This document shows positions 3,403 to 45,353 of a stretch of DNA of 64,000 bases, in pieces. The DNA is taken from assembly GCA_964106645.2 (NCBI GenBank), contig OZ067044.1, one strand, 5' to 3'. Numbering within the stretch: position 1 is the first letter of the stretch; each line of letters begins with the position of its first letter. The position numbers and the translations under genes were made by a program. The notes beneath the pieces were generated by a model that saw only the letters and a program-made list of their open reading frames with translations, was not told where the DNA came from and did no database searches. The stretch is from Podarcis pityusensis. Its lineage: Eukaryota.

Positions 3403-3440
3403 CCAACAGTGACACTGTGAGTCTGAAACCGAGAACTGCA
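3403..3440 (-). promoter_or_regulatory. Pcdh CSE / CTCF site, exon 1 promoter (CACT variant)
   Basis: Minus strand TGCAGTTC..ACTCACAGTGTCACTGTTGG, ~250 bp upstream of ATG; matches CSE plus upstream TGCAG module. Confidence 0.8.
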
Positions 3441-5520
3441 ATCTTTTCCCAATGATTTTTCTTCCCTAATTCATGACATAGTAGTATTTTTATGTAATGA
3501 CTCAGACCATATTCTCATACAGGTTATTTGAATATGCCTGTTGGAAAGTGTTATCTGTTCACCATTACAGTAGGTTAAAAGAAATCAGCTTCAAATTAAT
3601 ATTTACAGCAAAGAAAAAGCGGTAAAGAATTTATAGCCCTATTTCCAATATTTCTTTAGGAAAAATCAGAATAGCAGACAGCAGTATGAGAATGATATTG
3701 TTATTTATAATAAAAGACTTTTAAACAAATTAGAAAAATATTGTATTAGGTATTTACAGGCATCTTAGACTGTGTGTGGAAAGCCTAAAGCCGTGTCTGA
3801 AAAGTGTGTTTACCTTTACATAATTTCACTGAAAATAGTGCCACATCTCAAGTCCTATTTTGTCACCTTATGTCCACACAATTTCTGGTCTGTTTGTGTA
3901 GCTTTCTCCTTCAACAGTTGTACTGTGTCAGTATTTACCTTTGCCATTTTCCCCACCTGCCCATTTGTCCAGTTACGATAGACACTTTGCTGATTTCATT
4001 TAGTTTGTGGTGTGTGCTTTTGACCTTACACAACACCCCAGCTACTTCACAATATCACAGATATGGGTCATCCCCTCTACATATGCAAACAATATGGAGA
4101 CCCCTATTTTGCCGGTGGGGAGTGGGGGGTGGGACAGGACAACCAGAAAGCTACTCAGAAATCACTACGGTCCTTTCAGTATTTTAGGAAGCTACATATC
4201 GTCTCCAGCTGTTAATGCAACTTCATTTAATCAAGGAACAAAACTGCATAAATAAGCCCTGGGTGTTATATGCTGAACCTCAAATGTTCTGAGCTTTCCC
4301 CTCCATTTTTAAACTTCTTTTTCTATGTTTCCTGAGCACACTGCAATTGTCAGTCATGGTCCTGTGCCCTAATTCCTTCCAGCAGCTAGCACCAACCCTG
4401 GCAAGAACACTCCTCCATCCTCACATCTGCCCTACTGGCCATGAGCCCAGCAGGGAGTTGGAGCGGGTGGTTCATTGCAGGCTTAAGTAACTCAAGAACC
4501 TGCTAATATATCCCACAATGCTATGATCAGAAATACAGTTATCCATCTATTCATGCGTTCATGCCATGTAAGTATCATAGCTAACATGTTGGTAGAGGAG
4601 TTCAAGAATTCAACATGCTTCGTGTATATTGAGCTGGTCTCATGTAAAGAACAAAACTGTGAACCAGGAATTCCGTGGTATGAATTTTGCCTCTGACAGG
4701 AACTCACTTATATAAGAATTATAAGATAATGTGTCAAATCCAGACTTAAATAAATTTGACTTAAATAAATTTGACTTAAATTAGTCTTGCTTGACTAACT
4801 TGGTCCAAGGATAACTAATTCTGAATCTGACCCATTATATGCAATGCCCTTTGAAACTTATAAATATCATTTACACAGTATCATTATTATTGTCTAAATC
4901 ATGAGGCAGAAATACATAACGCAGGCAGTGCAATCTGGCCAGTAGCATTATTGAAAAAACTGACATGGAAATTGAAGACAGCAAGAGGCCAGGGGAAATA
5001 TGATAACTTTTATGCAGTCTTGGATGATTTTATAGATTATACAAACAATGAGACATGTGGCAGAACGGTGCCTTGGCCTACAGCACAGTTTGGTGTGCAT
5101 GAAGCACATATTTTATTTTATTCTTCCTGCTTCCTTCTTGCCTTTGTATAATCCCTGCAGACCAACACTGCTGCTGATACAATATATATTTGTAGTTGTG
5201 ATCAACAGTCAAAGAGATGGAGGTCATTACGTACCATTTTGTTTTTGTTAAGATTGAAATGATTTTAGAATATACACTTTAGCAAAGCTCTGTGGAGTAT
5301 TTGAAGATAACTCTCTGACTGTATGTAATTCTTTTATTTTTGTTTTAAATAAAATTTAAAAATAAATAAATGCACAATTCATGTCTTTAACAAAATATCC
5401 CACATTATCTGTCCACCTGTCCGCCTTTCAGACAGTTGTTTAGAAAGAGCTTTAATGCAATGTGGTTTCACTTAAAGGAATATGGGGGCTGGAAATATCC
5501 ACAATCTACTCTAGAAGGCC

Positions 5521-5544
5521 AGTCAGTCAGTCAGTCAGCCAGCC
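5521..5544. repeat. (AGTC)n microsatellite; copies at ~17649, ~29836, ~42031
   Basis: 4, 5, 5 and 6 AGTC units in the four array units. Confidence 0.9.
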
Positions 5545-6951
5545 AATCAGTCTTGACTTGACTTTTTTTTTACATCACACATGCAGAAACACACATGCCT
5601 TTATTGAACCCCACCTTACAGAAAACAAAACACGACTGATTTGTTTTCCCACCCACAAATTCCAGTCTGCAGAGATATGGTGAATGGACTTGACCATGGA
5701 CCACAATCTCATTTATTTACAAGTCTGATCTGATTTCTACCAAGTTGAAGGCCTTCCTTGCAGGTCACATTTAATTGGTGACCCCACTCTGGACTTAAGA
5801 TTGGGATCAGTACTGAAACTGGTATTTGCTCTTCACTCAATTTTGTGTAGAGGAGGACATTCAAACACCAGGAGCTGGTAAATCTTAGGTATGAGATAAT
5901 TAGTTCTCCTTTCCAGATCCACCCAAGTTAGTAAGGACGCTATGAGGCTAAGCATCCTTTTATGCCATGTTGCGCCCACTCTAGGTTTCTTAGGTTTCTA
6001 ATCTACATAGAACATGTGCATTGTGGACTATTTAAATGGAATACCGGTATCTAGATGTAGCTAGACTTTAATTTTCCACACTCTGAATTTTAATACTGAA
6101 TTCCAGTATTAAAATTAGAAAAATGTGTGGACTAAACTAATGTAGATGTCATTAGTTTGATAAGGCAATTCAATCTGATGTTTCTGGAACTTTCCTCTTC
6201 ATTGAATGAAACAGGGAAGCTCTAGATCTGAACTATGTATAAATACTTTATACAATGATGTTTAATGTGAATTGTAGGCAGCAATTCATTGTATAATTTC
6301 TAAGTGAAACTATATTAACAGCATAATTCACACGCATAACCTAGATTCAAACAATCTACTGAAGTTCATGGTAGCTGCAGTTCATTAAACTGAAAACTCA
6401 CACAGTATAAATGAACAAATTTATAATTAATTTGATTTTATGGAGAAGGAAGTAAAGCATAATTTACAGACACCTCTCAAAAGTATATGTCTTTAAAATT
6501 TATAGCTTAAAAAAATTGCTAGTAATACTAATAACAGTGATAGTATTTTCTGCTATATAGCAAGGTGCCCTCCTTTGATTCTACAGCCAAAATTGCTGCC
6601 CCCCCAAGCCAAGTAATGTGAAAAACAAAGTTCTTTTCCTCTCTTTATCTAATTTAATGAAAGTAGTAGAAGGTCAACTCCTCAAAATACTAGTTGTTCA
6701 AATGACAGCAAGATAAGTTCTACCAGATGGTTTCAAGGGCATGGCTCGAAGCTGCAATGTGTAGCTTCCCTATGGAGCGAAAAGGAGCATCCTGATTCAT
6801 GAAAGCCAAATGATGTAAGAGCCAAACTATTCATTTATATGGTGAAAAACAAAAAGGCAGTCACATTAGCTGGATAAAAAGCACTGTGACAATGTCACTA
6901 ATGGCAAAGAATGATGGATAATGGCATTTAATTTCAGAAAACAAACCTTAC

Positions 6952-9372
6952 CTGTTCTCCATTATCTACTGCAGAATCAAAATTGTTCCCTACATTGCCT
7001 GTAAAAGGCACAGCAGGTTTCTCACTGCTAAGAATATTCTCTGCAATCTGTATATTTGGTGTCAGGAAGGTAAACTCGTTCTTCCTGGACTCAGAAGACA
7101 GACACAGCTGGTAGGAATAGGGCAAAGTCCCATCTTCAAAGTTGGGTGGAAAGATGGCACCATTCTTGGAATGGGGAACAGGACCAAAGCACTGTAGGAA
7201 CCTGGGATGCCCTGATTGACGGAGCTTCATTGTAACGGCCAGAATGACAGTCAAGAGGAACAAGAAGGAGATCACAGCTAAGGCCAGCACCAAGTAGAAC
7301 TGCAGGTCAGACTGATACTCCGAGCTGCTGGGTTGGCTCTTCATTTCCGGAAGGGCCTCCTGAAAGTTCTCAGCAAACACCAGGTTAAGAGTCATGGTGG
7401 CCGAGAGAGATGGCTGCCCGTTATCCTTCACCATAATGACCAGTCTCTGTTTCACAGCGTCTCTCTCCACAAAGGCCCTGGCTGTCCTGATCTCTCCAGT
7501 ATGAGAACCAACCGTGAAGAGTGCCGGCTCAGTGGCCTGAGTCAGGTGGTAGGAGAGCCAGGCGTTGTGTCCAGAATCTGCATCCACGGCCACCACCTTG
7601 GTGACAAGATAATCTGCCTCGGCCGAACGAGGCACCATCTCAAACAAGGCTGAGCCCTTGGCTTCTTGGGAGGGGGACAGGATACGAGGGCTGTTATCAT
7701 TCCTGTCAAGAACAAACACCCTGACGGTCACATTGCTGCTGAGAGGGGGAGAACCCCCATCTTGGGCCTTCACTTGCACCCGAAACTCTCTGAATTGTTC
7801 ATAGTCAAAGGATCTCTGGGCATAGATGATGCCAGTCTCAGAATTAATGGAGATATAGGAGGAGATGGGAAGCTCCTCAATGTTGCTGTTGAGGATGGAG
7901 TATGTAATCCGTGAGTTCTGGTCCATATCAGGATCAGAGGCTTTGATGGTGAAAATGGAGGCACCTGAAGGATTGTTTTCTGGCACATAGATGCTGTAGG
8001 TTGATCTCTGAAATGTAGGGGCATTATCATTGATATCTGAGATCTGTAGTGAGATTGTTTTGTGTGTGGAAAGAGGTGGAGTTCCTCTGTCAGTGGCTGT
8101 GATTGTAATATTATATGCAGGAGCTATTTCTCTGTCCAAAGGACTGTCGGTCTGGAGCTTGAAGTAATTGTTAGATGAGGGAAGAATTTTGAAGGGCAAA
8201 TCATCGTTTAAGTAGCAAGTAACCTTCCCATTATCTCCACTATCTCTGTCATTCACATTGATCAGTGCAATGATTGTTCCTGACAGAGAATTTTCAGGAA
8301 CTGGGCTGAACATGGAGGCTAATGTCACTTCTGGGGCATTATCATTCTCATCATGAACCCTTATCTCAATATTAGAATGTGTCACCAATCCACCTCCATC
8401 TTTTGCAGCAACTGTCATACTATATTCATCATTGTCCTCAAAATCCAGTTGCTCCAGAAGAGTGATTCTACCACTGATGGGATCCAGCCTGAATTTCTGT
8501 TCAGCCGTTGCCGGTATGTTGCTAAAATGATACCTGATTTGGGCATTTGTACCTTCATCCTTATCAGAGGCTGCAACCTGGAGAACAAGTGACCCAACAG
8601 GAACATTTTCAGATAAACTGACCTTGTATACCTCTTGACTGAAAACAGGTGGGTTGTCATTGGCATCTGTGACATTAATCTGTATCTGGGCTGTCCCAGT
8701 TTTCCTAGGCTCACCCCCATCCATAGCGGTAAGAACCAAGTGAAGGGTCTGTTCACTTTCTCGATCAAGAGGTTTCTGTAGCACCAGTTCTGCATATTTA
8801 TGTCCATCCTTTCTCTCTCTAATTTCCAAAACAAAGTACTGATTGGAGCTCAGCTGGTAATCCTGGAGAGAGTTCACCCCAATGTCAGGATCTTCTGCTT
8901 TCCCAAGGAGAAATCGAGTGCCTGGCAAAGTTTGCTCACCTGTCTCCAGGTTGATGTTGCCATTGAGGAATTGTGGTGCATTATCATTAACATCCTGTAT
9001 TTCCACTAGCACATGAAAAATATTCAAAGGGTTTTCCACCACAACTTCAAAATTAACAAAGCAATTTGGATTTTTGCCACATATCCCCTCCCTATCAATC
9101 CTGTCATTTACATAGAGGTTTCCATTCTCTGCATTGATACTGAAATGCTGCATTTTAGCCACAGACACAGTGTGCAGATTGCGATGTTTTAGTTCTTTGG
9201 TGCTCAGTCCCAGGTCCTTGGCGAGGTTCCCCACAACGGAACCCTTTGCCATCTCCTCAGGGGTTGAATAATGAATCTGCTCTGATGCAGCCCAACAGGT
9301 AAAAGACAATAGAGAGAGAAGCAGTACTTGCCTTGTGAGTGCCCTGCCATTCCCTGGGTGCCTTCTCTCCAT
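6952..9372 (-). CDS. PCDHGB: Protocadherin gamma-B-like variable exon 2 (array type B)
   Basis: ORF 6934..9372, 6 EC + TM + gamma-B cytoplasmic motif; donor CAG|GTAAGG at 6952/6951, phase 0. Confidence 0.93.
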
Positions 9373-9646
9373 CTGGCTGGTTCTCTCAAAAACAGGCTGC
9401 TTCCTTTTCTCAGTTTCCTATGCTCAAGCTCTCACAGTGATGAAGGAAACAACATGAGGTATCACTGAGGAAGAATAAACTGCCTTTTTCTTATATTTGT
9501 GCAAAGCAAAAGAGATTTTTCCTTCTCTGCAAGAGTTCCCTGTCTCTGTGCTCTTCAGTAGGCCTGATCTGAATAACAGTGATGGGAGTTACTGCAGTCT
9601 AGGAAGCATCAATAGATGTCTATCCTCTCTCTGGCTCTCATACTGG

Positions 9647-9684
9647 CCAACACTGACACTTAGAGGACCACTCGAGGAACTGCA
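9647..9684 (-). promoter_or_regulatory. CSE / CTCF site, exon 2 promoter (CAGT variant)
   Basis: TGCAGTTC..CCTCTAAGTGTCAGTGTTGG. Confidence 0.78.
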
Positions 9685-10440
9685 TTTTGTTCTATGAAAA
9701 TAGACAGGGGTGAATAAATGCAGATGTTTCTCCAGCACATACTGTACCTTCCTTTCTGCTCACTGAGTGGAGCATTTGAGAAAGCTTTTCCTTGGTGTTC
9801 TTTCTTAGTGTACAGCTACCCTCATTTATGTTCGTGGCTTTTCAGTACTGTGAAAATTGGGGTTGTATCTAATACTGCAATTACATGAAGGTTATACACA
9901 TCTTCATTTTTTTTTTGGAAACATGGAAACATTATTATTAATATATAAATATCCAGTTACATAGTAAAACTTTATCTTAAAATTAATGTATTACGATAAT
10001 AGTTATGCTATAGTAGCACAAGAGCTGTAAGTCAACTGTATTTTTGTTGTTGTTGCTTAAATAGAATATAAACACCCTATTGAAATTATTCTATTTTTTT
10101 ATCTCTCCTAAGTTGTTGGATGTCTGTTCATCAACATTTATGGAGCAGAGTACAAGTTCTTCTCAGTGTTGGGTTGGAATTCCAAGAGTAACTTACTATT
10201 TCAAGAGTTCTCTCTCTGTTTTTTGAGGATAAGATGAGATGCAACACTTGCAGCTCCTGTCTAGACAGCACTAGGTAATAAAAGTGTGTTCGCTGGTATT
10301 GGTTCTACATCAGACTCTGCCACTGCCTCCTACCTGCTGGTGCCATACAAATGTCCTTGTTTAGCAGTTGCTCCCCTGTGATCAAAGCAGGAACACAGCA
10401 CAAGTGCAGGACCAATAGCTGTAGCTGCTCTACCAGCAGT

Positions 10441-10619
10441 AAAAAAAGGTAAAGGACCCCCGGATAGTTAAGTTCAGTCAAAGGCGACTATGGGGTGGCG
10501 GCGCTCATCTCTCTTTCAGGCCGAGGGAGCCGGCATTTGTCCACAGCCAGCTTTCCAGGTCATGTGGCCAGCAAGACTAAACAGCTTTTGGCACAACGGA
10601 ACACCTTGACGGAAGCTAG
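10441..10619 (-). mobile_element. Sauria SINE 3' fragment
   Basis: aaaggtaaagg (reverse of ACCTTT tail), ..ggcgctcatctc..ggccgagggagccggc..ggtcatgtggccagc..gactaa; recognised from family consensus. Confidence 0.8.
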
Positions 10620-11064: not shown

Positions 11065-11297
11065 AAACATAAGAAGAGCCCTGCTGGATCAGGCCAGAGC
11101 TCTATTGAGTCCAGCATCCTTCCTTCCACTGTGGCCAACCAGATGCCCCTCAAAAGCTCTGCCCTTGGTCCACATTCAGAGGTGTCTGGTACTAGACATA
11201 ATATAGCCAATGTGACAATGATTTTTTCTAATCCCCCTTTAAAATCACCCAAGTAGGTGACCATCGTTGCACCTTGTGATAGTGATTTCCATTGTTT
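11065..11297 (-). mobile_element. CR1 LINE 3'-terminal fragment
   Basis: aacataagaagagccctgctggatcaggcca..tccagcatc..gtggccaaccagatgcc; minus-strand frame reads like the CR1 ORF2 end (..LGDFKGGLEK..). Confidence 0.75.
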
Positions 11298-12865: not shown

Positions 12866-15295
12866 CTGCTCACCAACCTCCTCTTTGGCATTGGCATCCC
12901 CACAGTTGCCATCCACAAGAACCACCTGAGAGATATCATTGCATAGCAAGTTTTCTGCCACCTGGATATGGGGTTTCGGGAAAGAGATCTGCTCTTTTCT
13001 CATCTCTGACGATAGACAGAGTTGGTAGGAATAAGGTAAAGTTCCTTCTTCATAGTTTGGTGGAAATATGACCTGCGCCTTAGAAAAAGCATTAGGTTCA
13101 AAGCATTGGAATAATTTGGGATTTCCTGATTGTCGAAGTTTCATGACAATGACCAGTATCACCGTCAGGAGGAACAAAAATGAGATCAATGCCAAAGCCA
13201 GCACCAAGTAAAACTGGAGGTCAGAATGATGCTCTGTGTCACCGGATTGCCTAGTCATTTCTGGAAGTGCCTCTTGGAAGTTCTCGGCAACCACGAGGTT
13301 GAGGACCACAGTAGCTGAGAGTGGAGCCTTCCCATTGTCCTTCACCAAGATGACCAGCTTCTGTTTCACAGCATCTTTCTCCAGAAGGGCTCGTGACGTC
13401 CTGATCTCTCCCGTGTGGGTCCCAATGGTGAAGAGGGCCGGCTCTGTGGCCTGTAGCACTTGGTAGGAGAGCCAGGCATTGTGCCCAGAGTCCGCGTCCA
13501 CAGCCACCACTTTGGTCACTAGGTAGCCTGGCTCTGCCGAGTGAGGAACCATCTCAAACAAGGCAGAGCCCTCAACACCCGGGACAGGATACAGAACGCG
13601 AGGGCTGTTATCGTTCTGATCCAAAATGTACACCCACACGGTTGCATTGTTGCTGAGAGAGGGAGAGCCGCCATCTTGGGCCTTCACTTGGATCTGAAAC
13701 TCCCTGAATTGCTCATAGTCAAAGGAGCGCTGTGCATAGATAGTTCCCGTCTCAGAGTTGATGGAGACGTAAGAGGAGAGAGGCAGCTCCTCCATGTTGC
13801 TGTTGAGGATGGAGTAAGTGATACGTGAGTTGCGGTCCAGATCTGGGTCCAAGGCTTTGATGGAGAAAATGGAGGCACCCGAGGGATTGTTTTCAGGCAC
13901 AAAGACACTGTAGGTTGATTTTTGAAAGACAGGGGGGTTGTCATTGATATCTGAAATCTGCAGGGAGATGGTTTTGTTGGAGGAGAGAGGGGGGCTACCT
14001 TTGTCGGTGGCTGTGATTGTGATGTTGTATCCTGAGGCTTTTTCTCTGTCCAAAGGACTGTCTGTAAGGATTTTGTAGTAGTTCTTAGATACAGATGCTA
14101 TTTTAAATGGTACATTACTTTGTAAGTGGCAGGTGAGCTTTCCATTTTCTCCTGAATCCCTATCCTTTACGTTGATGAGAGCTATTACTGTTCCAGAAAC
14201 AGAATCTTCTGGAATTGGAGAAGATAAGGAGGCTAGAATAATTTCTGGAGCATTGTCATTCTGATCTATAATCTTTATATCAACATTAGAGTGAGCCACT
14301 AATCCACCTCCATCTCTTGCTTCAACTGCCATAGTGTACTTCTCTGTTTCCTCAAAGTCAAAGGTCTCCTTAATTGTAATTGTTCCACTTTGTGGATCTA
14401 GTCTAAATTTCTCATACACTTTTTCTGGGACTTTACTGAATGTGTAATGGATCTGACTATTTGAACCTTCATCCCTATCAGAGGCTTTTACTTGGAGTAT
14501 GGAGGACCCCACAGGGGAATTTTCCCTCAGGCTAACTGTATAAACCTCTTGAGTGAAGACTGGTGGGTTGTCATTGGCATCTGTGACGTTAATCCATATC
14601 TGGGCAGTCCCAGTTTTTTTTGGTTCACCACCATCAAGAGCCGTGAGGATCAACTGAAGCGAGTGCTCACTTTCCCGATCCAAAGGTTTTTGTAGGACCA
14701 ACTCTGCATTTTTATGGCCATCTAGACTGTGTTTAATTTCTAATACAAAGAACTGATTTAGGTTTAACTGATAATTCTGGAGAGAATTAATCCCAGTATC
14801 AGGATCTTCAGCTTTCCCAAGGAGAAATCTAGCACCTGGCAATGTGGATTCAATTATTTCCAGTCTAATATTGGCTTCTAAGAATTGTGGGGCATTATCA
14901 TTAATGTCCTGAATTGCTACACTTACATGGAAAACATTCAATGGATTTTCAACCACAGCTTCAAAATCTATAAGGCAGTGTGTGCTCTCTCTACACATCC
15001 CCTCACGATCTATCCTCTCATTCACATACAGGTTTCCATTTTCAGCATTGATAGTGAAATAAGGCTTTTTACCTTCAGAAATGATATGCAGGTTTCTGCT
15101 CTTCAGTTCTCTGGCATTCAGTCCCAGATCCTTGGCAAGATTTCCCACCAAAGACCCCTTTGCCATCTCCTCAGGAATAGAATAGTGAACCTCTTCCAAA
15201 ACTGCTCCACAAAACAAAGATGATAATATCAGAAGGGTAATATGCCTTCCTGATGTTTGAAAGCTCTCTCCATGAAGGATTCCTCTCATCTTCAT
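12866..15295 (-). CDS. PCDHGB: Protocadherin gamma-B-like variable exon 3 (type A)
   Basis: ORF 12824..15319; ATG 15295; donor CAG|GTAAG at 12866/12865; paralog of exon 1. Confidence 0.93.
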
Positions 15296-15540: not shown

Positions 15541-15578
15541 CCAACAGTGACACTGTGAGTCTGAAACCGAGAACTGCA
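15541..15578 (-). promoter_or_regulatory. CSE / CTCF site, exon 3 promoter (CACT)
   Basis: Same sequence as exon 1 CSE. Confidence 0.8.
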
Positions 15579-21777: not shown

Positions 21778-21815
21778 CCAACACTGACACTTAGAGGACC
21801 ACTCGAGGAACTGCA
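21778..21815 (-). promoter_or_regulatory. CSE / CTCF site, exon 4 promoter (CAGT)
   Basis: Same sequence as exon 2 CSE. Confidence 0.78.
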
Positions 21816-27700: not shown

Positions 27701-27738
27701 CCAACAGTGACACTGTGAGTCTGAAACCGAGAACTGCA
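27701..27738 (-). promoter_or_regulatory. CSE / CTCF site, exon 5 promoter (CACT)
   Basis: Same sequence as exon 1 CSE. Confidence 0.8.
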
Positions 27739-33691: not shown

Positions 33692-33964
33692 CTGGCTGGT
33701 TCTCTCAAAAACAGGCTGCTTCCTTTTCTCAGTTTCCTATGCTTAAGCTCTCACAATGATGAAGGAAACAACATGAGGTATCACTGAGGAAGAATAAACT
33801 GCCCTTGTTCTTATATTTGTGCAAAGCAAAAGAGATTTTTCCTTCTCTGCAAGAGTTCCGTCATTGTGCGCTTCAGTTGGCCTGATCTGAATAACAGTGA
33901 TGGGAGTTACTGCAGTCTAGGAAGCATCAATGGGTCTCTATCCTATCTCTGGCTTTCATACTGG

Positions 33965-34002
33965 CCAACACTGACACTTAGAGGACCACTCGAGGAACTG
34001 CA
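33965..34002 (-). promoter_or_regulatory. CSE / CTCF site, exon 6 promoter (CAGT)
   Basis: Same sequence as exon 2 CSE. Confidence 0.78.
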
Positions 34003-34760
34003 TTTTGTTCTATGAAAATAGACAGAGGTGAATAAATGCAGATGTTTCTCCAGCACATACTGTACCTTCCTTTCTGCTCACTGAGTGGAGCATTTGAGAA
34101 AGCTTTTCCTTGGTGTTCTTTCTTAGTGTACAGCTACCCTCATTTATGTTCGTGGCTTTTCAGTACTGTGAAAATTGGGTTCATATCTGATACTGCAATT
34201 ACATGAAGGTTATACACATCTTCATTTTTTTTTTGGAAACATGGAAACATTATTATTAATATATAAATATCCAGTTACATAGTAAAACTTTATCTTAAAA
34301 TTAATGTATTACGATAATAGTTATGCTATAGTAGCACAAGAGCTGTAAGTCAACTGAATTTTTGTTGTTGTTGCTTAAATAGAATATAAACACCCTATTG
34401 AAATTATTCTATTTTTTTATCTCTCCTAAGTTGTTGGATGTCTGTTCATCAACATTTATGGAGCAGAGTACAAGTTCTTCTCAGTGTTGGGTTGGAATTC
34501 CAAGAGTAACTTACTATTCCAAGAGTTCTCTCTCTGTTTTTTGAGGATAAGATGAGATGCAACACTTGCAGCTCCTGTCTAGACAGCACTACGTAATAAA
34601 AGTGTGTTCGCTGGTATTGGTTCTACATCAGACTCTGCCACTGCCTCCTACCTGCTGGTGCCATACAAATGTCCTTGTGCTTAGCAGTTGCTCCCCTGTG
34701 ATCAAAGCAGGAACACAGCACAAGTGCAGGACCAATAGCTGTAGCTGCTCTACCAGCAGT

Positions 34761-34940
34761 AAAAAAAAGGTAAAAGACCCCCGGATAGTTAAGTTCAGTC
34801 AAAGGCGACTATGGGGTGGCGGCGCTCATCTCTCTTTCAGGCCGAGGGAGCCGGCATTTGTCCACAGCCAGCTTTCCAGGTCATGTGGCCAGCAAGACTA
34901 AACAGCTTTTGGCACAACGGAACACCTTGACGGAAGCTAG
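34761..34940 (-). mobile_element. Sauria SINE fragment (duplicated copy)
   Basis: Copy of 10441-10619. Confidence 0.8.
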
Positions 34941-35388
34941 GCATGATCCAACAGGATAAAATGTTTGTTGGCACTTTACACGTGAGCTCATATCATGATA
35001 ATAGCATCATGAAGTTTGGGAACTGAGAACAGTGGAGAGACAAGAGGTGTTCGAAGAAATCAATTGTGTCTAATTGAAAGAGTATATGATACAGGTCTTA
35101 TTAGAAAATAACTAAAGTAATTTACTTTCAGTTTGTACGCATTAAAGGTAATAGCTCCTCTTATTGCTCCATAGAACAGCCTACAAGACCATAAACCCAA
35201 TCTGGAGATGTGTATCCTCTTCAAATATTTTTGCCTGGCATACATCCCCTGGAAACTGGAACCCCACTGAACAGAACTGACATTTCCAAGTGATCACAAC
35301 CAGAGTGCTGCCTAATTTTCAACATGCTTCTAGTTTTTCATCTGCTAGTCTATCACACAGAAACATTGCACACAACTCTATTTCATAA

Positions 35389-35621
35389 AAACATAAGAAG
35401 AGCCCTGCTGGATCAGGCCAGAGCTCTATTGAGTCCAGCATCCTTCCTCCCACTGTGGCCAACCAGATGCCCCTCAAAAGCTCTGCCCTTGGTCCACATT
35501 CAGAGGTGTCTGGTACTAGACATAATATAGCCAATGTGACAATGATTTTTTCTAATCCCCCTTTAAAACCACCCAAGTAGGTGACCATCGTTGCACCTTG
35601 TGATAGTGATTTCCATTGTTT
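35389..35621 (-). mobile_element. CR1 3' fragment (duplicated copy)
   Basis: Copy of 11065-11297. Confidence 0.75.
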
Positions 35622-36168
35622 GTTCGTTTAAATAAGTAAATTATTTAGAAATGGTTTATATAAAAACAAAATGGCTAGGCATACAATTATCATTAAATTC
35701 CTATTATGAAATCAAATAAAGCATATAGCCTTCATAAAGATCCAAATAAAGTATGTGGGTCTGCGTTATCTTGAACTTCATTGCACCAATAAATTATGAA
35801 AAAACACACAGAAAGTTATCAGACTGCCTCCCCTCCCTGACTCTTAGTTGTACCATTGATAAAATATTCCATGCTGTAGTAATCCATTCCCCTAAAGTTG
35901 GTGTTCTTAGCCCCTGCTAAGACAAATAGTTGCTCTGGCCACAGACAGTAACTGTTGGAGTAATTATCTGTCTTCTGTTTTACTAAATCCTTAAAATAAC
36001 TAGAGAAATCAATGAGAGGATCCATTGGCAAATTGCATCCTGTCATTATTCCATTTTCTCTTATTATATCCACCCACAAATTCTTAATTTAGGGACATGT
36101 CTCCCAAATATGTTGCATCCTAGCATTGGTTGAATTGTACTTCCAACGTAATCATTTGCTGTACTATA

Positions 36169-36280
36169 AATTTGACCAAACTGTGGGAGGCAGTGGAAGA
36201 CAGGAGTGCCTGGCGTGCTCTGGTCCATGGGGTCACGACGAGTCAGACATAACTAAACAACTAAACAACTAAACAACAAC
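36169..36280 (+). mobile_element. BovB 3' end (duplicated copy)
   Basis: Copy of 23982-24093. Confidence 0.8.
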
Positions 36281-36444
36281 TAAAATGTGACGAAGCTACA
36301 GCAGTGTCATATACCATCAAAAAATAAACTTATACAAGTGTTTCTTAAGATTCACACTAATTGTTTGCTGCCATTTCCATTTTCACTGATATGATGTCCC
36401 AGACATCTCTGGCAAGTACTTTGTTGCATTTAGTTGTCAACAAG

Positions 36445-36700
36445 GAATTCCATAGTTTAACTATGCATTGTATGAAGAAGGTCTTCCTTTTATCTGTTCT
36501 GAATCTCCCAATGTTCAGCTTCACCCAATGGCCACAGGCTCCGGTAATATGGGGGAGACGGATCTCTCTATTCATTTTCTCAACCTCGTTCATAATTCTA
36601 TACAGCTGTCTCACTTCCCTTCTTGTAATTTATTTTATCTAAACTAAATATCCCTACAGAAGTTGTTGCACCCATGGATCATTTGGGATGCCTTTTTCTG
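36445..36700 (-). mobile_element. CR1 ORF2 fragment (duplicated copy)
   Basis: Copy of 12105-12360. Confidence 0.78.
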
Positions 36701-37209
36701 TGCTTGCTGTATTTCACACAACTTCTTTTTATGAATCCTCCAGAGAAGCCCCACACAGCCCAAAATTATGCTACAAAGAAACAGGAAGCATTCATGTTTT
36801 ATGCATTCTTCAGTTAAGCTGATCATAACAGGAAAAATAAACTGTGCTTTGTGTGAGCAAAAAAGTACAAATCCATATTTTTAATTGACGAGGGGTGTAT
36901 AAATAACTATATATTTATGGTGACATGCTAATACCCCACAGGAAGATTGAACACTCAAGCTGTATGCATGCCTACATTTCCTTTAATTCCTGAGATGAAG
37001 ACTCACTCTGTCATTATTGTATGATTCAGAATTTATGCTGCGTCTACCATTGCAATTTAAAAGCTACTTGCAGGAAAAGTTCTTCACAATCAGAACAACT
37101 GATGCTAATACTGTGATTTGATTTTGCTGACACCCTTTTATAGTAAAACAAAATAAAAATATTAGTTTTATTCCTATAAGGTAAGGCCATTTCTGAAAGC
37201 AAAACTTAC

Positions 37210-39645
37210 CTGCTCACCAAACTCCTCTTTGGCACTGGCACTGGCATCCCCACAGTTGCCATCCACAAGAACCACCTGAGAGCTATCATTGCATAGCAAA
37301 TTTTCTGCCACCTGGATATGGGGTTTTGGGAAAGAGATCTGCTCTTTCCTCATCTCTGACGATAGACAGAGTTGATAGGAATAAGGTAAAGTTCCTTCTT
37401 CATAGTTTGGTGGAAATATGACCTGGGCCTTAGAAAAAGCATTAGGTTCAAAGCATTGGAATAATTTGGGATTTCCTGATTGTCGAAGTTTCATGACAAT
37501 GACCAGTATCACTGTCAGGAGGAACAAAAATGAGATCAATGCCAAAGCCAGCACCAAGTAAAACTGGAGGTCAGAATGATGCTCTGTGACACTGGATTGC
37601 CTAGTCATTTCCGGAAGTGCCTCTTGGAAGTTCTCTGCAATCACAAGGTTGAGGACCACAGTAGCTGAGAGTGGAGCCTTCCCATTGTCCTTCACCAAGA
37701 TGACCAGCTTCTGTTTCACAGCATCTTTCTCCAGAAGGGCTCGTGATGTCCTGATCTCTCCCGTGTGGGTCCCAATGGTGAAAAGGGCCAGCTCTGTGGC
37801 CTGCAGCACTTGATAGGAGAGCCAGGCATTGTGCCCAGAGTCCGCGTCCACAGCCACCACTTTGGTCACCAGGTAGCCTGGCTCTGCCGAGTGAGGAACC
37901 ATCTCAAACAAGGCAGAGCCCTCGGCGCCCGGGACAGGATAGAGAACGCGAGGGCTGTTATCGTTCTGATCCAAAATGTACACCCACACGGTGGCGTTGT
38001 TGCTGAGAGAGGGAGAGCCACCATCTTGGGCCTTCACTTGGATCTGAAACTCCCGGAATTGCTCATAGTCAAAGGAGCGCTGTGCATAGATAGTTCCCGT
38101 CTCAGAGTTGATGGAGACATAAGAGGAGAGAGGCAGCTCCTCCATGTTGCTGTTGAGGATGGAGTAAGTGATACGTGAGTTGCGGTCCAGATCTGGGTCC
38201 GAGGCTTTGAGGGCAAAAATGGAGGCACCTGAGGGATTGTTTTCAGGCACAAAGACACTGTAGGTTGATTTTTCAAAGGCAGGGGGGTTGTCATTGATAT
38301 CTGAAATCTGCAGGGATATGGTTTTGTTGGAGGAGAGAGGGGGGCTACCTTTGTCGGTGGCCGTGATTGTGATGTTGTATCCTGAGGCTTTTTCTCTGTC
38401 CAAAGGACTGTCTGTGAGGATTTTATAGTAGTTCTTTGAAGTTGACACTATTTGAAATGGTACATTACCTTGTAGATGGCATGTAATTTTTCCATTTTCT
38501 CCAGAATCTTTATCCTTTACGTTGATGAGAGCAATTAGTGTTCCAGAAGCAGAGTCTTCAGGAACTGGACTAGATAAGGAGGCCAGAATGATCTCTGGAG
38601 CATTGTCATTCTTATCTATAATCTTTATATCAACATTACAGTGAGCCACTAATCCTCCTCCATCTCTTGCTTCAACTGTCATAGTGTACTTCTCTGTTTC
38701 CTCAAAGTCAAGGGTTTCCTTAATTGTAACTGTTCCACTTTGTGGATCTAGTCTAAATTTCTCATAGACTTTTTCTGGGACTTTATTGAATGTGTAACTG
38801 ATCCGACTATTTGAACCTTCATCCCTATCAGAGGCTTTTACTTGGAGTATGAGGGATCCCACAGGGGAATTTTCCCTCAGGCTAACTGTATAAACCTCTT
38901 GAGTGAAGACTGGTGGGTTGTCATTGGCATCTGTGACGTTAATCCATATCTGGGCAGTCCCAGTTTTTCTGGGTTCACCCCCATCCAGGGCTGTAAGGAT
39001 CAACTGAAGTGAGTGCTCACTTTCCCGATCCAAAGGTTTCTGCAGCACCAATTCTGCATATTTATGGCCGTCCAGACTATGCTTAATTTCTAATATAAAG
39101 AACTGATTTAGGCTTAACTGGTAATTCTGGAGAGAATTAATCCCAATATCAGGATCTTCAGCTTTCCCAAGGGGAAATCTGGCCCCCGGCAATGTGGATT
39201 CAATTATATCTAGTCTAATATTGGATTCTAGGAATTGTGGGGCATTATCATTAATGTCCTGAATTGCTACACTTACATGGAAAACATTCAATGGCTTTTC
39301 AACCATCGCTTCAAAATCAATAATGCAGTGTGTGCTCTCTCTACACATCCCCTCACGATCTATCCTCTCATTCACATACAGGTTTCCATTTTCAGCATTG
39401 ATAGTGAAATATGGCTTTTTACCTTCAGAAAGGATATGCAGGTTTCTGCTCTTCAGTTCTCTGACATTCAGTCCTAGATCCTTGGCAAGATTTCCCACCA
39501 AAGACCCCTTTGCCATCTCCTCAGGGATGGAATAGTGAACCTCTTCCAAAACTGCTCCACAGAACAAAGATGATAATATCAGAAGGGTAATATACCTTCC
39601 TGGTGTTTGAAAGCTCTCTCCATGAAGGATTCCTCTCATCTTCAT
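37210..39645 (-). CDS. PCDHGB: Protocadherin gamma-B-like variable exon 7 (type A)
   Basis: ORF 37174..39669; ATG 39645; donor at 37210/37209; three amino acids different from exon 5. Confidence 0.92.
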
Positions 39646-39890
39646 TTTCCTCTTCTCTTTGATGAGCAAAGGATTTCAGATTTCCACCAAGACAGGAGAT
39701 TTTTTTTTGCACAGTAAAAAAAAGAACTGGATCCTTTGGCTTAATTTGTATATGCTGCAGTGTTTTCTGTTTTCAGCTGAAACGTTTGTTCCAGCGTCTG
39801 CTGGTATTCCCGATGTGCAGTTTGGGACAAAGAGATCTCTCTGCAGAAAGCATCAGTGGAACTTCAGCTGCCCTTGGATTGCCGCCTTGT

Positions 39891-39928
39891 CCAACAGTGA
39901 CACTGTGAGTCTGAAACCGAGAACTGCA
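39891..39928 (-). promoter_or_regulatory. CSE / CTCF site, exon 7 promoter (CACT)
   Basis: Same sequence as exon 1 CSE. Confidence 0.8.
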
Positions 39929-42626
39929 ATCTTTTCCCAGTGATTTTTCTTCCCTAATTCATGACATGACATAGTAGTATTTTAAAGTAATGACTCAGAC
40001 CATATTCTCATACAGGTTTTCTGAATATGCCTGTTGGAAAGTGTTATCTGTTCACCATTACAGTAGGTTAAAAGAAATCAGCTTCAAATTAATATTTACA
40101 GCAAAGAAAAAGCGGTAAAGAATTTATAGCCCTATTTCCAATATTTCTTTAGGAAAAATCAGAATAGCAGACAGCAGTATGAGAATGATATTGTTATTTA
40201 TAATAAAAGACTTTTAAACAAATTAGAAAAATATTGTATTAGGTATTTACAGGCATCTTAGACTGTGTGTGGAAAGCCTAAGGACGTGTCTGAAAAGTGT
40301 GTTTACCTTTACATAATTTCACTGAAAATAGTGCCACATCTCAAGTCCTATTTTGTCACCTTATGTCCACACAATTTCTGGTCTGTTTGTGTAGCTTTCT
40401 CCTTCAACAGTTGTACTGTGTCAGTATTTACCTTTGCCATTTTCCCCACCTGCCCATTTGTCCAGTTACGATAGACACTTTGCTGATTTCATTTACTTTG
40501 TGGTGTGTGCTTTTGACCTTACACAACACCCCAGCTACTTCACAATATCACAGTTATGGTTCATCCCCTCTACATATGCAAACAATATGGAGACCCCTAT
40601 TTTGCTGGCGGGGAGTGGGGGTGGGACAGGACAACCAGAAAGCTACTCAGAAATCACTACGGTCCTTTCAGTATTTTAGGAAGCTACATATCGTCTCCAG
40701 CTGTTAATGCAACTTCATTTAATCAAGGAACAAAACTACATAAATAAGCCCTGGGTGTTATATGCTGAACCTCAAATGTTTTGAGCTTTCCCCTCCATTT
40801 TAAAACTTCTTTTTCTATGTTTACGTGGTAGCTGAGCACACTGCAATTGTCAGTCATGGTCCTGTCCCCTAATTCCTTCCAACAGCTAGCACCAACCCTG
40901 GCAAGAACACTCCTCCATCCTCACATCTGCCCTACTGGCCATGAGCCCAGCAGGGAGTTGGAGCGGGTGGTACATTGCAGGCTTAAGTAACTCAAGAACC
41001 TGCTAAGATATCCCACAATGCTATGATCAGAAATACAGTTATCCATCTATTCATGCGTTCATGTCATGTAAGCAGCATAGCTAACATGTTGGTAGAGCAG
41101 TTCAAGAATTCAACATGCTTCGTGTATATTGAGCTGGTCTCATGTAAAGAACAAAACTGTGAACCAGGAATTCCGTGGTATGAATTTTGCCTCTGACAGG
41201 AACTCACTTATATAAGAATTCTAAGATAATGTGTCAAATCCAGACTCCATCATACTTAGAGTAGCCCCACTTAAACAAATTTGACTTAAATTAGTCTTGC
41301 TTGACTAACTTGGTCCAAGGATAACTAATTCTGAATCTGACCCATTATATGCAATGCCCTTTGAAACTTATAAATATCATATACACAGTATCATTATTAT
41401 TGTCTAAATCATGAGGCAGAAATACATAACGCAGGCAGTGCAATCTGGCCGGTAGCATTATTGAAAAAACTGACATGGAAATTGAAGACAGCAAGAGGCC
41501 AGGGGAAATATGATAACTTTTATGCAGTCTTGGATGATTTTATAGATTATACAAACAATGAGGCATGTGGCAGAACGGTGCCTTGGCCTACAGCACAGTT
41601 TGGTGTGCATGAAGCACATATTTTATTTTATTTTTCCTCCTTCCTTCTTGCCTTTGTATAATCCCTGCAGACCAGCACTGCTGCTCATACAATATATATT
41701 TGTAGTTGTGGACAACAGTCAAAGAGATGGAGGTTATTACGTACCGTTTTGTTTTTGTTAAGATTGAAATGATTTTAGAATATACACTTTAGCAAAGCTC
41801 TGTGGAGTATTCGAAGATAACTCTCTGACTGTATGTAATTGTTTTATTTTTGTTTTAAATAAATTTAAAAAATAAATAAATGCACAATTCATGTCTTTAA
41901 CAAAATATCCCACATTATCTGTCCGCCTGTCCGCCTTTCACACAGTTGTTTAGAAAGAGCTTTAATGCAATGTGGTTTCACTTAAAGGAATATGGGGGCT
42001 GGAAATATCCACAATCTACTCTAGAAGGCCAGTCAGTCAGTCAGTCAGTCAGTCAATCAGTCTTGACATGACTTTTTTTTTACATCACTCATGCAGGAAC
42101 ACACATGCCTATGAATTTGATTTTATGGAGAAGGAAGTAAAGCATAATTTACAGACACCTCTCAAAAGCGTATATCTTTAAAATCTATTGCTTTTAAAAA
42201 TTGCCAGTAATACTGATAACAGTGACAGTATTTTCTGCTATATAGCAAGGTGCCCTCCTTTGATTCTACAGCCTAAATTTTTGCCCCCCCCCCCCAAAGC
42301 CAAGTAATGTGAAAAGCAAAGTTCTTTTTAATGAAAGTAGTTGAAGGTCAACTCCTCAAAATACTAGTTGTTCAAATGACAACAAGATAAGTTATACCAG
42401 ATGGTTTCAAGGGCATGGCTCGAAGCTGCAATGTGTAGCTTCCCCATGGAGTGAAAAGGACGCATCCTGATTCATGAAAGCCAAATGATGTAAGAGCCAA
42501 ACTTTTCATTTATATGATGAAAAACAAAAAGGCAGTCACATTAGCTGGATAAAAAGCACTCTGACAATGTCACTAATGGCAAAGAATGATAGATAATGGC
42601 ATTTAATTTCAGAAAACAAACCTTAC

Positions 42627-45047
42627 CTGTTCTCCATTATCTACTGCAGAATCAAAATGGTTTCCTACATTGCCTGTAAAAGGCACAGCAGGTTTCTCAC
42701 TGCTAAGAATATTCTCTGCAATCTGTATATTTGGTGTCAGGAAGGTAAACTCGTTCTTCCTGGACTCAGAAGACAGACACAGCTGGTAGGAATAGGGCAA
42801 AGTCCCATCTTCAAAGTTGGGTGGGAAGATGGCACCATTCTTGGAATGGGGAACAGGACCAAAGCACTGTAGGAACCTGGGATGCCCTGACTGACGGAGC
42901 TTCATTGTAACGGCCAGAATGACAGTCAAGAGGAACAAGAAGGAGATCACAGCTAAGGCCAGCACCAAGTAGAACTGCAGGTCAGACTGATACTCCGAGC
43001 TGCTGGGTTGGCTCTTCATTTCCGGAAGGGCCTCCTGAAAGTTCTCAGCAAACACCAGGTTCAGAGTCATGGTGGCCGAGAGAGACGGCTGCCCGTTATC
43101 CTTCACCATAATGACCAGTCTCTGTTTCACAGCGTCTCTCTCCACAAAGGCCCTGGCGGTCCTGATCTCTCCAGTATGAGAACCAACCGTGAAGAGTGCC
43201 GGCTCAGTGGCCTGAGTAAGGTGGTAGGAGAGCCAGGCGTTGTGTCCAGAATCTGCATCCACGGCCACCACCTTGGTGACAAGATAATTTGCCTCGGCTG
43301 AACGAGGCACCATCTCAAACAAGACTGAGCCCTTGGCTTCTTGTGAGGGGGACAGGATACGAGGGCTGTTATCATTCCTGTCAAGAACAAACACCCTGAC
43401 GGTCACATTGCTGCTGAGAGGGGGAGAACCCCCATCTTGGGCCTTCACTTGCACCCGAAACTCTCTGAATTGTTCATAGTCAAAGGATCTCTGGGCATAG
43501 ATGGTGCCAGTCTCTGAATTAATGGAGATATAGGAGGAGATGGGAAGCTCCTCAATGTTGCTGTTGAGGATGGAGTATGTGATCCGTGAGTTCTGATCCA
43601 TGTCGGAATCAGAGGCTTTGATGGTGAAAATGGAGGCACCTGAAGGATTGTTTTCTGGCACATAGATGCTGTAGGTTGATCTCTGAAAAGCAGGGGCATT
43701 ATCATTGATATCTGAGATCTGTAGTGAGATTGTTTTGTGTGTGGAAAGAGGTGGAGTTCCTCTATCAGTGGCTGTGATTGTAATATTATATGCAGGAGCT
43801 CTTTCTCTGTCCAGGAGACTGTCTGTCTGGAGCTTGAAGTAATTGTTAGATGAGGGAAGAATTTTGAAGGGTAAATCATCCTGTAAATAGCAAGTAACCT
43901 TCCCATTATCACCACTATCTCTGTCATTTACATTGATCAGAGCAATAACAGTTCCTGGCAGAGAATCTTCAGGAACAGGACTGAACATGGAGGCTAACGT
44001 CACCTCTGGGGCATTATCATTCTCATCAAGTACAGTTATTTCAATGTTGGATTGTGCTACCAATCCACCACCATCTTTGGCTTCTACTGTCATGGTATAT
44101 TCTTTAGTTTCCTCAAAGTTGAGCAGTCCCGTAAGAGTGACTATGCCATTAATTGGATCCAAACTGAATTTCTTGTGGGTGTTTGCTGCTATGTTGCTGA
44201 ATTGATACCTTATCTGAGCATAAGAGCTTTCGTCCTTATCTGAGGCTACAACCTGGAGCACAAGTGACCCAACAGGCACATTTTCAGGTAAATTGACTTT
44301 GTACACCTCCTGAGTGAAAACAGGTGGGTTGTCATTGGCATCTGTGACATTAATCCGTATCTGGACAGTCCCAGTTTTTCTTGGTTCGCCGCCATCCAAG
44401 GCTGTAAGGATCAAGTGAATAGTCTGTTCACTTTCTCGATCCATAACTTTACTTAGCACTAATTCTGCATATTTATTTCCATCTTTTCTCTCCCTTACTT
44501 CCAAGGTGAAGTACTGGTTGGAGCTCAGCTGGTAATTCTGGAGAGAGTTCAACCCAATATCAGGATCTTCTGCTTTCCCAAGGAGAAATCTGGTTCCTAG
44601 AACAGTTGATTCTACAATCTCCAAGTTGGTTATATCACTGAGGAACTGTGGTGCATTATCATTAATATCCTGTATAACTATTGTTATATGGAAAACATTT
44701 AAAGGATTTTCCATCACCACTTCAAAATTAATAAGGCAGAGTGGAGTTGTGCCACATATTTCCTCCCTATCAATTCTGTCATTCACATAAAGGTTTCCAT
44801 TGTCTGCACTTATACTGAAATACTGCATTTTGTTCACAGAGGCAGCATGCAGATTGCGCCTTCCTAGATCTCTGGCATTCAGTCCCAAATCTTTGGCGAG
44901 ATTTCCCACAATCGAACCCTTTGCCATCTCCTCAGGGATAGAATACCGAATCTGCTCTGAGGCAGCCCAGCAGGAGAAAGGCAAAAATAAGAGAAGCAGT
45001 ACTTGCCTTCTGAGTGTTCTGCCATCCTCTTCCTGCCTTTTGTCCAT
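42627..45047 (-). CDS. PCDHGB: Protocadherin gamma-B-like variable exon 8 (B-type 3' half, distinct EC1-EC3)
   Basis: ORF 42609..45047; donor CAG|GTAAGG at 42627/42626. Confidence 0.93.
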
Positions 45048-45315
45048 CCAGATCAGTGAGAAATTTTCTGCCTCCTTTTCTGCAGCTTGTAGTGACCAGA
45101 TCAGTTTCTCAATAGCACAGAGGAAATCTCTGTAAGTAAATATAAACTGCCTTCCTTCTTAGATTGTGAGGATTTGGAGCCTTTTCCTTTTTTTCAGCCA
45201 GACTGCAACACCTTTGTGTTTTTCTCTTTGCCCAGTCTGTACAGAACTGATGAAACACTCACTTTGTAGGAGAAGCATAACTAGATCTCCATCCTTTTTT
45301 CTGGCACCACACTGG

Positions 45316-45353
45316 CCAACAGTGACACTCTGAGGCTCAGAGAGAGAATTGCA
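45316..45353 (-). promoter_or_regulatory. CSE / CTCF site, exon 8 promoter (CACT)
   Basis: TGCAATTC..CCTCAGAGTGTCACTGTTGG. Confidence 0.8.

Follow-up and report, generated by a model that had tools for sequence, protein, structure and literature searches.

The CpG of the CGCT box is absent from the CSEs of variable exons 1-8 (8/11) and kept in those of exons 9-11 (3/11) of a protocadherin-gamma (Pcdh-gamma) cluster that occupies the window, that is, the whole stretch of 64,000 nucleotides analysed here. An earlier note on this DNA had reported this loss together with the type of box at each exon, and both were found exact letter for letter: on the minus strand the box reads CACT at five of the eleven CSEs, CAGT at three and CGCT at three. 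The sites of exons 1-8 are CSE variants, not CGCT-box CSEs. Their origin is best explained by CpG decay that would have been tolerated in a methylated locus and then multiplied by duplication, a reading to which we assign a probability of about 0.65.

The gamma cluster and its tandem array

The window carries a Pcdh-gamma cluster of Podarcis type. Once ATG and splice donor positions had been set by homology, all 11 exons showed the organization of clustered Pcdh-gamma variable exons, i.e. tandem single exons of about 2.4 kb encoding six cadherin repeats, a TM segment and a short tail before the donor, with 11/11 ORFs of 805-812 aa ending at GT donors. All features given below lie on the minus strand. 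Positions 1-42110 form a tandem array of 3.5 copies of a 12.1-12.2-kb unit (12138, 12160 and 12190 nt) that continues past the left end of the window, each unit comprising two gamma-B exons, one of A type and the other of B type, together with their promoters. Self-BLAST of the array aligned 1-29919 with 12128-42110 at 97.4% identity, and exons 1-7 recur with a 12.1-kb period at 93-100% identity. The A-type exons 1 (731-3160; 810 aa up to the splice donor), 3 (12866-15295), 5 (25023-27458) and 7 (37210-39645; 99.8% identical to exon 5) alternate with the B-type exons 2 (6952-9372), 4 (19084-21504) and 6 (31271-33691; 99.9% identical to exon 4), and every one of these ORFs is intact. Exon 8 (42627-45047) is a C-type gamma-B exon, sister to the B type, whose 5' half and promoter lie outside the 12-kb repeat. 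It is followed by exon 9 (47865-50279), of gamma-A type, with residues 1-330 98% identical to Podarcis muralis 'protocadherin gamma-A4-like' (P0010); by exon 10 (54026-56446), which is 65-68% identical to the other exons except exon 9 and whose gamma-B label we take partly from N-terminal motifs; and by exon 11 (60949-63369), of gamma-B type and outgroup to the B and C types.

Lineage-specific tandem growth of lizard gamma-b exons is also described for Anolis in the accessible part of PMC2764143, a part that contains no promoter analysis; the unit found here differs in being a recent two-gene repeat. A survey of 29 loci (26 metagenome, 3 genome) yielded 6 confirmed ones, 5 fish-like and 1 GC-rich and amniote-like, and no squamate or mammal Pcdh locus was among these 6.

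CSE variants in the eleven promoters

As in the mammalian Pcdh CSE/pCBS, to the extent that this is covered by the available portions of PMC7811963 and PMC3333863, there is one site per variable exon on the gene strand, composed of an upstream module and a core with an invariant C12. The sites lie 251-289 nt upstream of the ATG in gene-sense orientation in 11/11 exons, and the frame GTGYCRSTGTT has 11 minus-strand and 0 plus-strand matches, against an expectation of 0.2 per window over 30 first-order Markov simulations. In the CTCF core register, which we set by the position numbers used in PMC10484683 and 10.1101/2022.03.09.483674, the CGCT cytosine is C12. The module lies a constant 18 nt before core position 1, and C2, G8, G10, C12, R13 and a TGMA module are present in all 11 sites.

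In the A lineage, the CSE of exon 1 (3408-3440) contains the 9-mer GTCACTGTT with its first G at 3413, a TGCA module, a CpG in the spacer and the core end GTCACT; the same 9-mer stands in the CACT sites of exons 3 (15546-15578, first G 15551), 5 (27706-27738, first G 27711) and 7 (39896-39928, first G 39901), the four sharing one identical 40-mer. Another 40-mer is identical in the three B-lineage CAGT sites, in which the 9-mer is GTCAGTGTT, namely those of exons 2 (9652-9684, first G 9657, with the core end GTCAGT and a CpG in the spacer), 4 (21783-21815, first G 21788) and 6 (33970-34002, first G 33975). The C-lineage CACT site of exon 8 (45321-45353) has GTCACTGTT with its first G at 45326, and the 300 nt on each side are free of CpG. 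CGCT is kept at exon 9 (50559-50591, GTCGCTGTT, first G 50564) and exon 10 (56732-56764, GTCGCTGTT, first G 56737), both with a TGAA module, and at exon 11 (63623-63655, GCCGCTGTT, first G 63628), which has C at core position 11. The description of the module as TGCA in exons 1-8 and TGAA in exons 9 and 10 was confirmed, and exon 11 brings the TGCA modules to 9/11. Compensation for CpG loss by TGCA was ruled out, exon 11 carrying TGCA and CGCT together.

A CpG follows the upstream module in the spacer of 7/8 CGCT-less sites, and therefore only the footprint of exon 8 is wholly CpG-free. Within the core, a C2 CpG occurs in 0/11 sites, the C12 CpG is the sole core CpG of exons 9-11, and exons 1-8 have no methylatable core CpG (0/8). 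The cores deviate from the canonical sequence at positions 3, 6 and 7, A6-G7 being absent or partial, and by this measure the CSEs are weak CTCF-type cores. Neither a further strong CTCF site nor an exonic CBS was found in the window with a CTCF consensus and two mismatches allowed, which gave 15 matches, none of them perfect and none a CSE.

Despite the lost CpG, the sites of the A, B and C lineages look functional, to judge from their conservation: 23/29 positions of module, core and tail are invariant among them, against 33/74 fourfold sites (binomial p=1.5e-4) and 4/60 positions of the upstream flank. Over the six lineages 7/15 core positions vary, including 13, whereas C12 is invariant.

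The CpG deficit extends beyond the array. CpG o/e is 0.23 for the locus, 0.00-0.32 in the 600-nt windows of all 11 promoters (0.16-0.31 for the CGCT ones) and 0.15-0.35 over the initial 800 nt of all 11 ORFs, and no promoter with its 5' exon, the CGCT ones included, qualifies as a CpG island. The contrast with mammals, in which prominent islands flank the Pcdh promoters (PMC10463633), thus concerns the whole block and not the array alone, because all 11 promoters are without an island; lizard non-methylated islands have a mammal-like o/e but are poorly predicted by sequence (PMC3583005). A second difference lies at the CSE itself, since 8/11 lizard sites (3/6 lineages) are without the CpG at positions 12-13, whereas each mammalian alternate promoter site has one (PMC7087399).

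RNA from a close relative (organism B, four of 24 runs) was compared with positions 32600-37700, a stretch that includes no CGCT gene and no A- or C-type promoter. In run X24, 11/11 exon/5'UTR bins were covered in a single direction and 0/13 non-repeat intergenic bins were covered, indicating that the A and B gene types of the array are both transcribed in the sense direction in the relative, at low depth (0.7-8.5). Sense coverage of exon 6 begins in the 171-nt bin directly downstream of its CSE; coverage does not continue from the 3' end of exon 7 into the intron, the constant exons lying outside the window. At 33970-33973, which X3 and X15 contigs cover, no difference appears among the rows listed (40 of 260), and the comparison suggests that organism B likely shares CAGT at this CSE. 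Run X22 contained reads in both directions.

History of the CpG losses

The earlier note regarded the CpG-less promoters as three otherwise dissimilar lineages. This does not hold for all of them: between exon 8 and exons 2/4/6, 112 nt of promoter align at 72-74% identity (E 2e-7 and 9e-5), and the EC1-EC3 coding parts are sisters. The promoter-only tree left the order of B, C and exon 11 unsupported (support 48), and a coding tree of EC1-EC3 was used instead; it grouped B with C (98/95) and both with exon 11 (99/87), and a clade of all CpG-less lineages that excludes exon 11 was rejected (AU p=0.005). Two G13>A changes and one C14>G change likely account, by parsimony, for all eight CpG-less sites. 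Two losses rather than eight are counted because exons 1-7 are duplicates of the 12.1-kb unit; nor do the independent losses number three, since exon 8 and the CAGT genes form a sister pair. The fourfold-site distance is 0.47 between B and C and 0-0.21 among array copies, and the loss common to exon 8 and exons 2/4/6 is, on this phylogeny, older than the amplification. A tie between CpG loss and amplification is accordingly not supported: with 3/5 gamma-B lineages CpG-less, the chance that both amplified genes are CpG-less is 3/10.

In the sequence of events that we favour, the locus would have been methylated in the germline, and deamination of 5mC on the opposite strand would have turned CG into CA in two separate events, one in the A lineage and the other in the B/C ancestor, followed by C14>G in the B lineage. 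Purifying selection would have held C12, no TG product being seen, and of the three promoters concerned, two would have grown to seven through duplication of the two-gene unit. Transition differences between units are 4.1-4.6 times more frequent at CpG than at other C/G sites, a ratio inflated by defining CpG in either copy, and, outside first-codon phases, 27/28 CpG columns occur privately in one of five gamma-B lineages. The CSE CpG is retained in 3/6 lineages and in one fish promoter (L001), and this retention, set against neutral CpGs that are mostly private, indicates some constraint on G13, whose loss may thus not be neutral.

CTCF binding and promoter choice

The view that both variants fit the CTCF core agrees with published data, in which G or A after C12 is the norm, ZF4/ZF3 accept positions 12-13 as CpG, methylated CpG or CpA, and binding is termed 'insensitive (at C12)' (PMC10484683). 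The KD of 163 nM for unmethylated DNA becomes 303 with both C12 strands methylated, 428 with the motif C12, 77 with the opposite C12 and 949 with the motif C2 methylated (PMC10325916 Table S2), so that C2 is the more methylation-sensitive core CpG and C12 methylation costs 2-3-fold in vitro; in the available part of PMC7811963, CGCT methylation is said to preclude CTCF binding. The suggestion that the variants are methylation-insensitive sites thus stands in that their C12 is not CpG-methylatable, but a large functional contrast is not supported, given that 2-3-fold effect. CACT and CAGT would bind CTCF well because the T opposite A13 supplies a methyl group that, as predicted from human CTCF data, is contacted by Ser364. 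Their predicted binding is equal to or up to roughly 2-fold above that of unmethylated CGCT and roughly 2-4-fold above that of C12-methylated CGCT, although what holds for strong cores may not apply to these CSEs because they are without canonical A6-G7. CACT and CAGT would then be modestly steadier anchors within the usual CTCF/cohesin enhancer looping, not a new rule; a different gene-choice rule for the amplified genes, as the earlier note had put forward, is possible.

Selection might instead have favoured CG>CA as a methylation-proof, hemimethyl-like lock, with promoters constitutively CTCF-bound and chosen more often or independently of methylation. Both inferred losses gave CA and none TG, A13 is kept in 3/3 lineages, and methylation of the opposite C12 tightens CTCF binding 2-fold; CpG-free HS5-1b of the mammalian Pcdh locus is constitutively bound (PMC7087399), and C12 methylation of Pcdha12 climbs from 19% to 42-63% with CTCF loss (10.1101/2022.03.09.483674). 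These mouse data are, however, correlative, the entire promoter being methylated, and CA twice has a chance of 1/4 and is equally explained by the keeping of C12. Since, in addition, the B/C loss preceded amplification, the 3/10 chance applies, CGCT promoters are equally CpG-poor and the effect in vitro is just 2-4-fold, we hold such selection to be decidedly unlikely. It is improbable, too, that A13 cuts the CTCF affinity of already weak cores and that a lower choice per copy is tolerated or offsets copy number. G13 is kept far oftener than neutral CpGs, and the deviations at positions 3, 6 and 7 may raise the importance of position 13, but the sites are strongly conserved (23/29), the ORFs are intact (8/8), both array types are transcribed in a relative, and the B/C loss is older than the copy gain. 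Moreover, all eight sites hold TGCA and T11, while position 11 is C at CGCT exon 11, the least favourable base there in vitro (over 54-fold weaker, PMC10484683). It is quite improbable that the assembly repeats a single real unit as two near-identical ones (exons 4/6 and 5/7): most of their 1-kb windows are 99.5-100% identical, yet two are 2-3% apart, other copies differ by 4-7%, and exon contigs of run X3 reach a depth of about 160 against 35-66 in intergenic ones, depth being no measure of copy number; such an artefact would leave six sites instead of eight, with no other consequence.

CAC is a context of neuronal CpA methylation, which is low per site. Methylation control might thus be replaced by CpA methylation at C12 (CAC/CAG), CpA being counted as methylatable (PMC10484683), or by the spacer CpG of 7/8 sites, which is found in 2/3 CpG-less and 0/3 CGCT lineages (6.5% of non-coding 10-mers contain CpG; p~0.01, post hoc). 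Both versions are very improbable indeed in view of the low CpA level and of the position of the spacer CpGs, which, at -9/-8 and -8/-7, fall just outside the four module bases read by ZF9 (register set here) and under ZF8, which makes backbone contacts only; exon 8, furthermore, has none.

As matters stand, the locus presents a known element in a variant sequence form, for which fish and frog offer precedents. Zebrafish and Xenopus tropicalis alpha CSEs are without the CGCT box and the Xenopus gamma box is less conserved, the CSE being kept likewise in these non-mammals (PMC4978886); the lizard case differs in concerning amniote gamma-B genes, with single-base changes of traceable history beside CGCT paralogues. 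HS5-1b is likewise a CpG-free CTCF site in a Pcdh locus, but it is a reverse-oriented enhancer-boundary site, whereas the lizard elements are candidate CTCF sites of weak core that lie in promoters and point forward. It is disputed whether C12 CpG methylation gates Pcdh choice (PMC7811963, in its available part) or marks a silent promoter (PMC10484683, PMC10325916), and the adjoining CGCT, CACT and CAGT versions in CpG-island-free promoters offer ready-made alleles for a test of gating. The lizard gamma cluster may even have dropped the CpG-island switch, with CACT/CAGT sites fixed in the hemimethyl-like state preferred by CTCF and acting as constitutive anchors. Stochastic choice in squamates would in that case rely on cohesin extrusion and other chromatin marks, need no demethylation of promoters, and fall most often on the amplified genes. 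We consider this unlikely, but if true, the locus would serve as a natural experiment in which the roles of CTCF binding and of methylation in choosing promoters are separated.

Variable exons and their promoter sites

The window contains 11 long minus-strand ORFs, each of 805-812 aa with a GT donor at its end, and judged by their sequence these are clustered protocadherin (Pcdh) variable exons. Exon 9 shares 98% identity over residues 1-330 with the Podarcis muralis gamma-A4-like protein P0010, which makes the locus a lacertid gamma cluster of Podarcis type. Pairwise identity is 64-100% among the remaining ten exons and 44-47% between these and exon 9; from their N-terminal motifs we take the ten to be gamma-B. 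This label agrees with the gamma-b expansion of Anolis described in the accessible part of PMC2764143.

Every exon is preceded by a CSE, the Pcdh promoter element with a CTCF-type site, and the places that the earlier note had claimed for the eleven 9-mers were each confirmed by position. In a common frame 11 sites lie on the gene strand and 0 on the opposite strand (0.2 expected), at a distance of 251-289 nt from the ATG in 11 of 11 exons. A gap-free alignment divides them into an upstream module and a spacer of 9 nt each, a core of 15 nt and a tail of GTT; the module reads TGCA in 9 of 11 sites and TGAA in exons 9 and 10, as had been claimed for these two and for exons 1-8. The C of the CGCT box is core position 12 according to the available text on mouse Pcdha12 (10.1101/2022.03.09.483674), and C2-T3 in 11/11 sites means that none has the strongly sensitive C2 CpG. 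The exon 11 site (63623-63655) has C at core position 11, as does that of the fish Pcdh promoter locus L001. A C at this position weakens binding in vitro more than 54-fold (PMC10484683); its presence in both sites may mean that the register is off or that CSEs tolerate it. In L006, a GC-rich amniote-like Pcdh locus, the promoter at 438-477 has a module-like AGCAGTTCC and a GTTGGCC tail, with GGGGAT at the place expected for GTCGCT and a CpG at core 2-3 (one case, register uncertain). A stray GTCACTGTT at 42218-42226 has no module and no GT ahead of it, stands in front of no exon and likely occurs by chance.

Two probable losses behind eight CpG-less sites

Positions 1-42110 comprise 3.5 copies of a 12.1-kb unit, each with one A-type exon (1, 3, 5, 7; CACT) and one B-type exon (2, 4, 6; CAGT), and one identical 40-mer is found at all four A sites and another at all three B sites. 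The tree of all 11 exons was built from EC1-EC3, which lie outside the 3' region in which exons 2, 4, 6, 8 and 11 have been homogenised (96-99% identity). B-type exons and exon 8 (CACT) are sisters (98/95), and exon 11, which has CGCT, joins them (99/87). A topology test with 6 representatives rejected a clade uniting A with B and exon 8 but leaving out exon 11 (AU p=0.005); the placement of A relative to exon 10 has no resolution in this tree. CGCT is present in exons 9, 10 and 11 and in L001. The loss of the CGCT CpG that the earlier note had reported at eight promoters is thus seen at all eight but does not stand as eight separate events, since parsimony gives two G13>A changes, then one C14>G. 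At fourfold sites B and exon 8 differ by 0.47 and array copies by 0-0.21, and their common CpG loss therefore predates the amplification; the loss in the A lineage happened no later than the A copies arose. With 3/5 gamma-B lineages in the window CpG-less, the chance that both genes of a two-gene unit lack the CpG is, by arithmetic, 3/10.

When 41501-45048 is compared with 4991-9373, the 3' flank of exon 8 matches that of the B exons at 97% and further on at 91%, except for 825 nt of additional sequence in the units. Exon 8 and the B exons are 96-99% alike in their 3' halves and about 80% in their 5' halves, and the 3' third of exons 2, 4, 6, 8 and 11 shows gene-conversion-like homogenisation (EC5-tail 96-99%, EC1-EC3 72-84%). 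This suggests that exon 8 and a B gene crossed over unequally within their homogenised 3' halves, giving rise to the 12-kb unit and to chimeric B copies. Exons 4 and 6 (99.9% protein identity) and 5 and 7 (99.5%) are either very recent duplications or assembly duplicates, and at such identity the copies therefore give dosage, not new recognition specificity.

CpG setting and signs of function

CpG o/e is 0.23 in the window, 0.20-0.28 in the exons, 0.00-0.32 in 600-nt promoter windows and 0.16-0.31 in the CGCT promoters, and transition differences between repeat units are 4.1-4.6 times as frequent at CpG as at other C/G positions, a ratio that the CpG definition biases upward. Depletion and excess transitions together would be a signature of germline methylation. 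No CpG island was found at the 11 promoters and 5' exons (o/e 0.00-0.35), in contrast to L006 (upstream o/e 0.87) and to the prominent islands alongside mammalian Pcdh promoters in the accessible part of PMC10463633. The deviation from the mammalian layout therefore extends to all 11 promoters, and the missing islands are possibly the more general contrast with the mammalian model. Non-methylated islands of lizards have an o/e like those of mammals, though sequence is a poor predictor, according to the available portion of PMC3583005. Small CpG-rich patches are confined to the interior of A-type exons and to intergenic DNA, the richest at 1351-1750 and its copies, deep in the A-type exon (14 CpG/300 nt, o/e about 0.7, GC 0.53).

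Comparison of the A, B and exon 8 sites shows no variation at 23 of 29 positions in module, core and tail, whereas fourfold sites are invariant at 33 of 74 (p=1.5e-4) and the upstream flank at 4 of 60. In the core, 8 of the 15 positions are the same in all six lineages, C12 being one of them, and position 13 is a purine throughout. The ORFs of all eight genes with CpG-less sites are intact, and the sites themselves look functional. In stranded RNA run X24 from organism B, a close relative, reads covered all 11 bins that span the 5' part of the B type and the 3' end of the A type, and 0 of 13 intergenic non-repeat bins, at a low depth (0.7-8.5, about 12% of the run read) and, in this other species, over a stretch free of CGCT genes and A-type promoters. 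The reads run in a single direction, consistent with sense transcription, and coverage begins in the bin immediately 3' of the CAGT site. Run X15, presumably RNA, gives contigs with the same pattern, yet one crosses that site. That organism B also carries CAGT is suggested by the lack of a difference there among 40 of 260 listed. At 34002, exactly where the upstream module begins, the match of one RNA-like contig of organism B ends and one DNA contig has a joint, hinting at a B-type paralogue with other upstream DNA. The unit's intergenic DNA contains interspersed repeats of high copy number, probably SINE-like, at 34652-34993, 35336-35506 and 36020-36532, where depth is very high in all four runs.

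Explanations for the lost CpG

The neutral CpG decay that had been offered as an alternative agrees with a CpG-poor locus and raised CpG transitions, but the loss may not be plainly neutral, for 3 of 6 lineages keep the CSE CpG. By contrast, of the 28 CpG columns not in first-codon phase, 27 are confined to a single one of the five gamma-B lineages, and G13 is therefore constrained, as preferred base or methylation handle. Each of the two losses produced CA rather than TG (chance 1/4), in line with selection preserving C12. Selection of CpG loss as a protection from methylation is unlikely. Published effects of methylation vary: CGCT methylation is said to preclude CTCF binding (PMC7811963, as far as available), in PMC10484683 zinc fingers ZF4/ZF3 accept CpG, methylated CpG and CpA at positions 12-13 and binding is called insensitive at C12, and the accessible Table S2 of PMC10325916 lists a KD of 163 nM without methylation, 303 nM when C12 is methylated on both strands, 428 nM on the motif strand alone, 77 nM on the opposite strand alone and 949 nM for methylation at motif C2. 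Opposite A13 stands a T, whose methyl takes the place of the opposite-strand 5mC; CACT and CAGT would therefore mimic the stimulated state, provided that the motif-strand G>A costs little, and a 2-4-fold difference from CGCT is predicted.

A simple drop in CTCF affinity is quite unlikely for sites so conserved, even if no lizard core fits the CTCF consensus perfectly or with two mismatches; carrying over published numbers to such weak cores is therefore uncertain. That spacer CpG or CpA methylation replaced the CGCT CpG is highly improbable: a spacer CpG occurs in 2/3 CpG-less and 0/3 CGCT lineages (post hoc; background 6.5% per 10-mer), but in our own register it lies under zinc finger ZF8, a backbone binder. 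Against the modest 2-4-fold contrast predicted above stand, besides PMC7811963, further statements in the available parts of the mammalian literature: every alternate site contains CpG and the CpG-free HS5-1b is constitutive (PMC7087399), demethylation of alpha promoters is linked to CTCF binding (10.1101/360206), and mosaic CSE methylation is cited for active and inactive promoters alike (PMC3333863).

The best explanation, to which we give a probability of roughly 0.65, is that two old lineages of gamma-B promoters, in a locus that is methylated and lacks islands, tolerated CpG decay at position 13, after which tandem duplication would have multiplied the CpG-less promoters. A precedent is found in zebrafish and Xenopus alpha CSEs without a CGCT box and the relaxed boxes of Xenopus gamma (PMC4978886, in its accessible text). 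No literature on squamate Pcdh promoters or CACT/CAGT CSEs was found in a search outside most subscription journals and the original CSE alignments. That Pcdh choice in squamates would be island-free and methylation-independent is doubtful; the CpG-less sites are likely still CTCF anchors, with C12 beyond the reach of CpG methylation and a predicted effect that would be modest.
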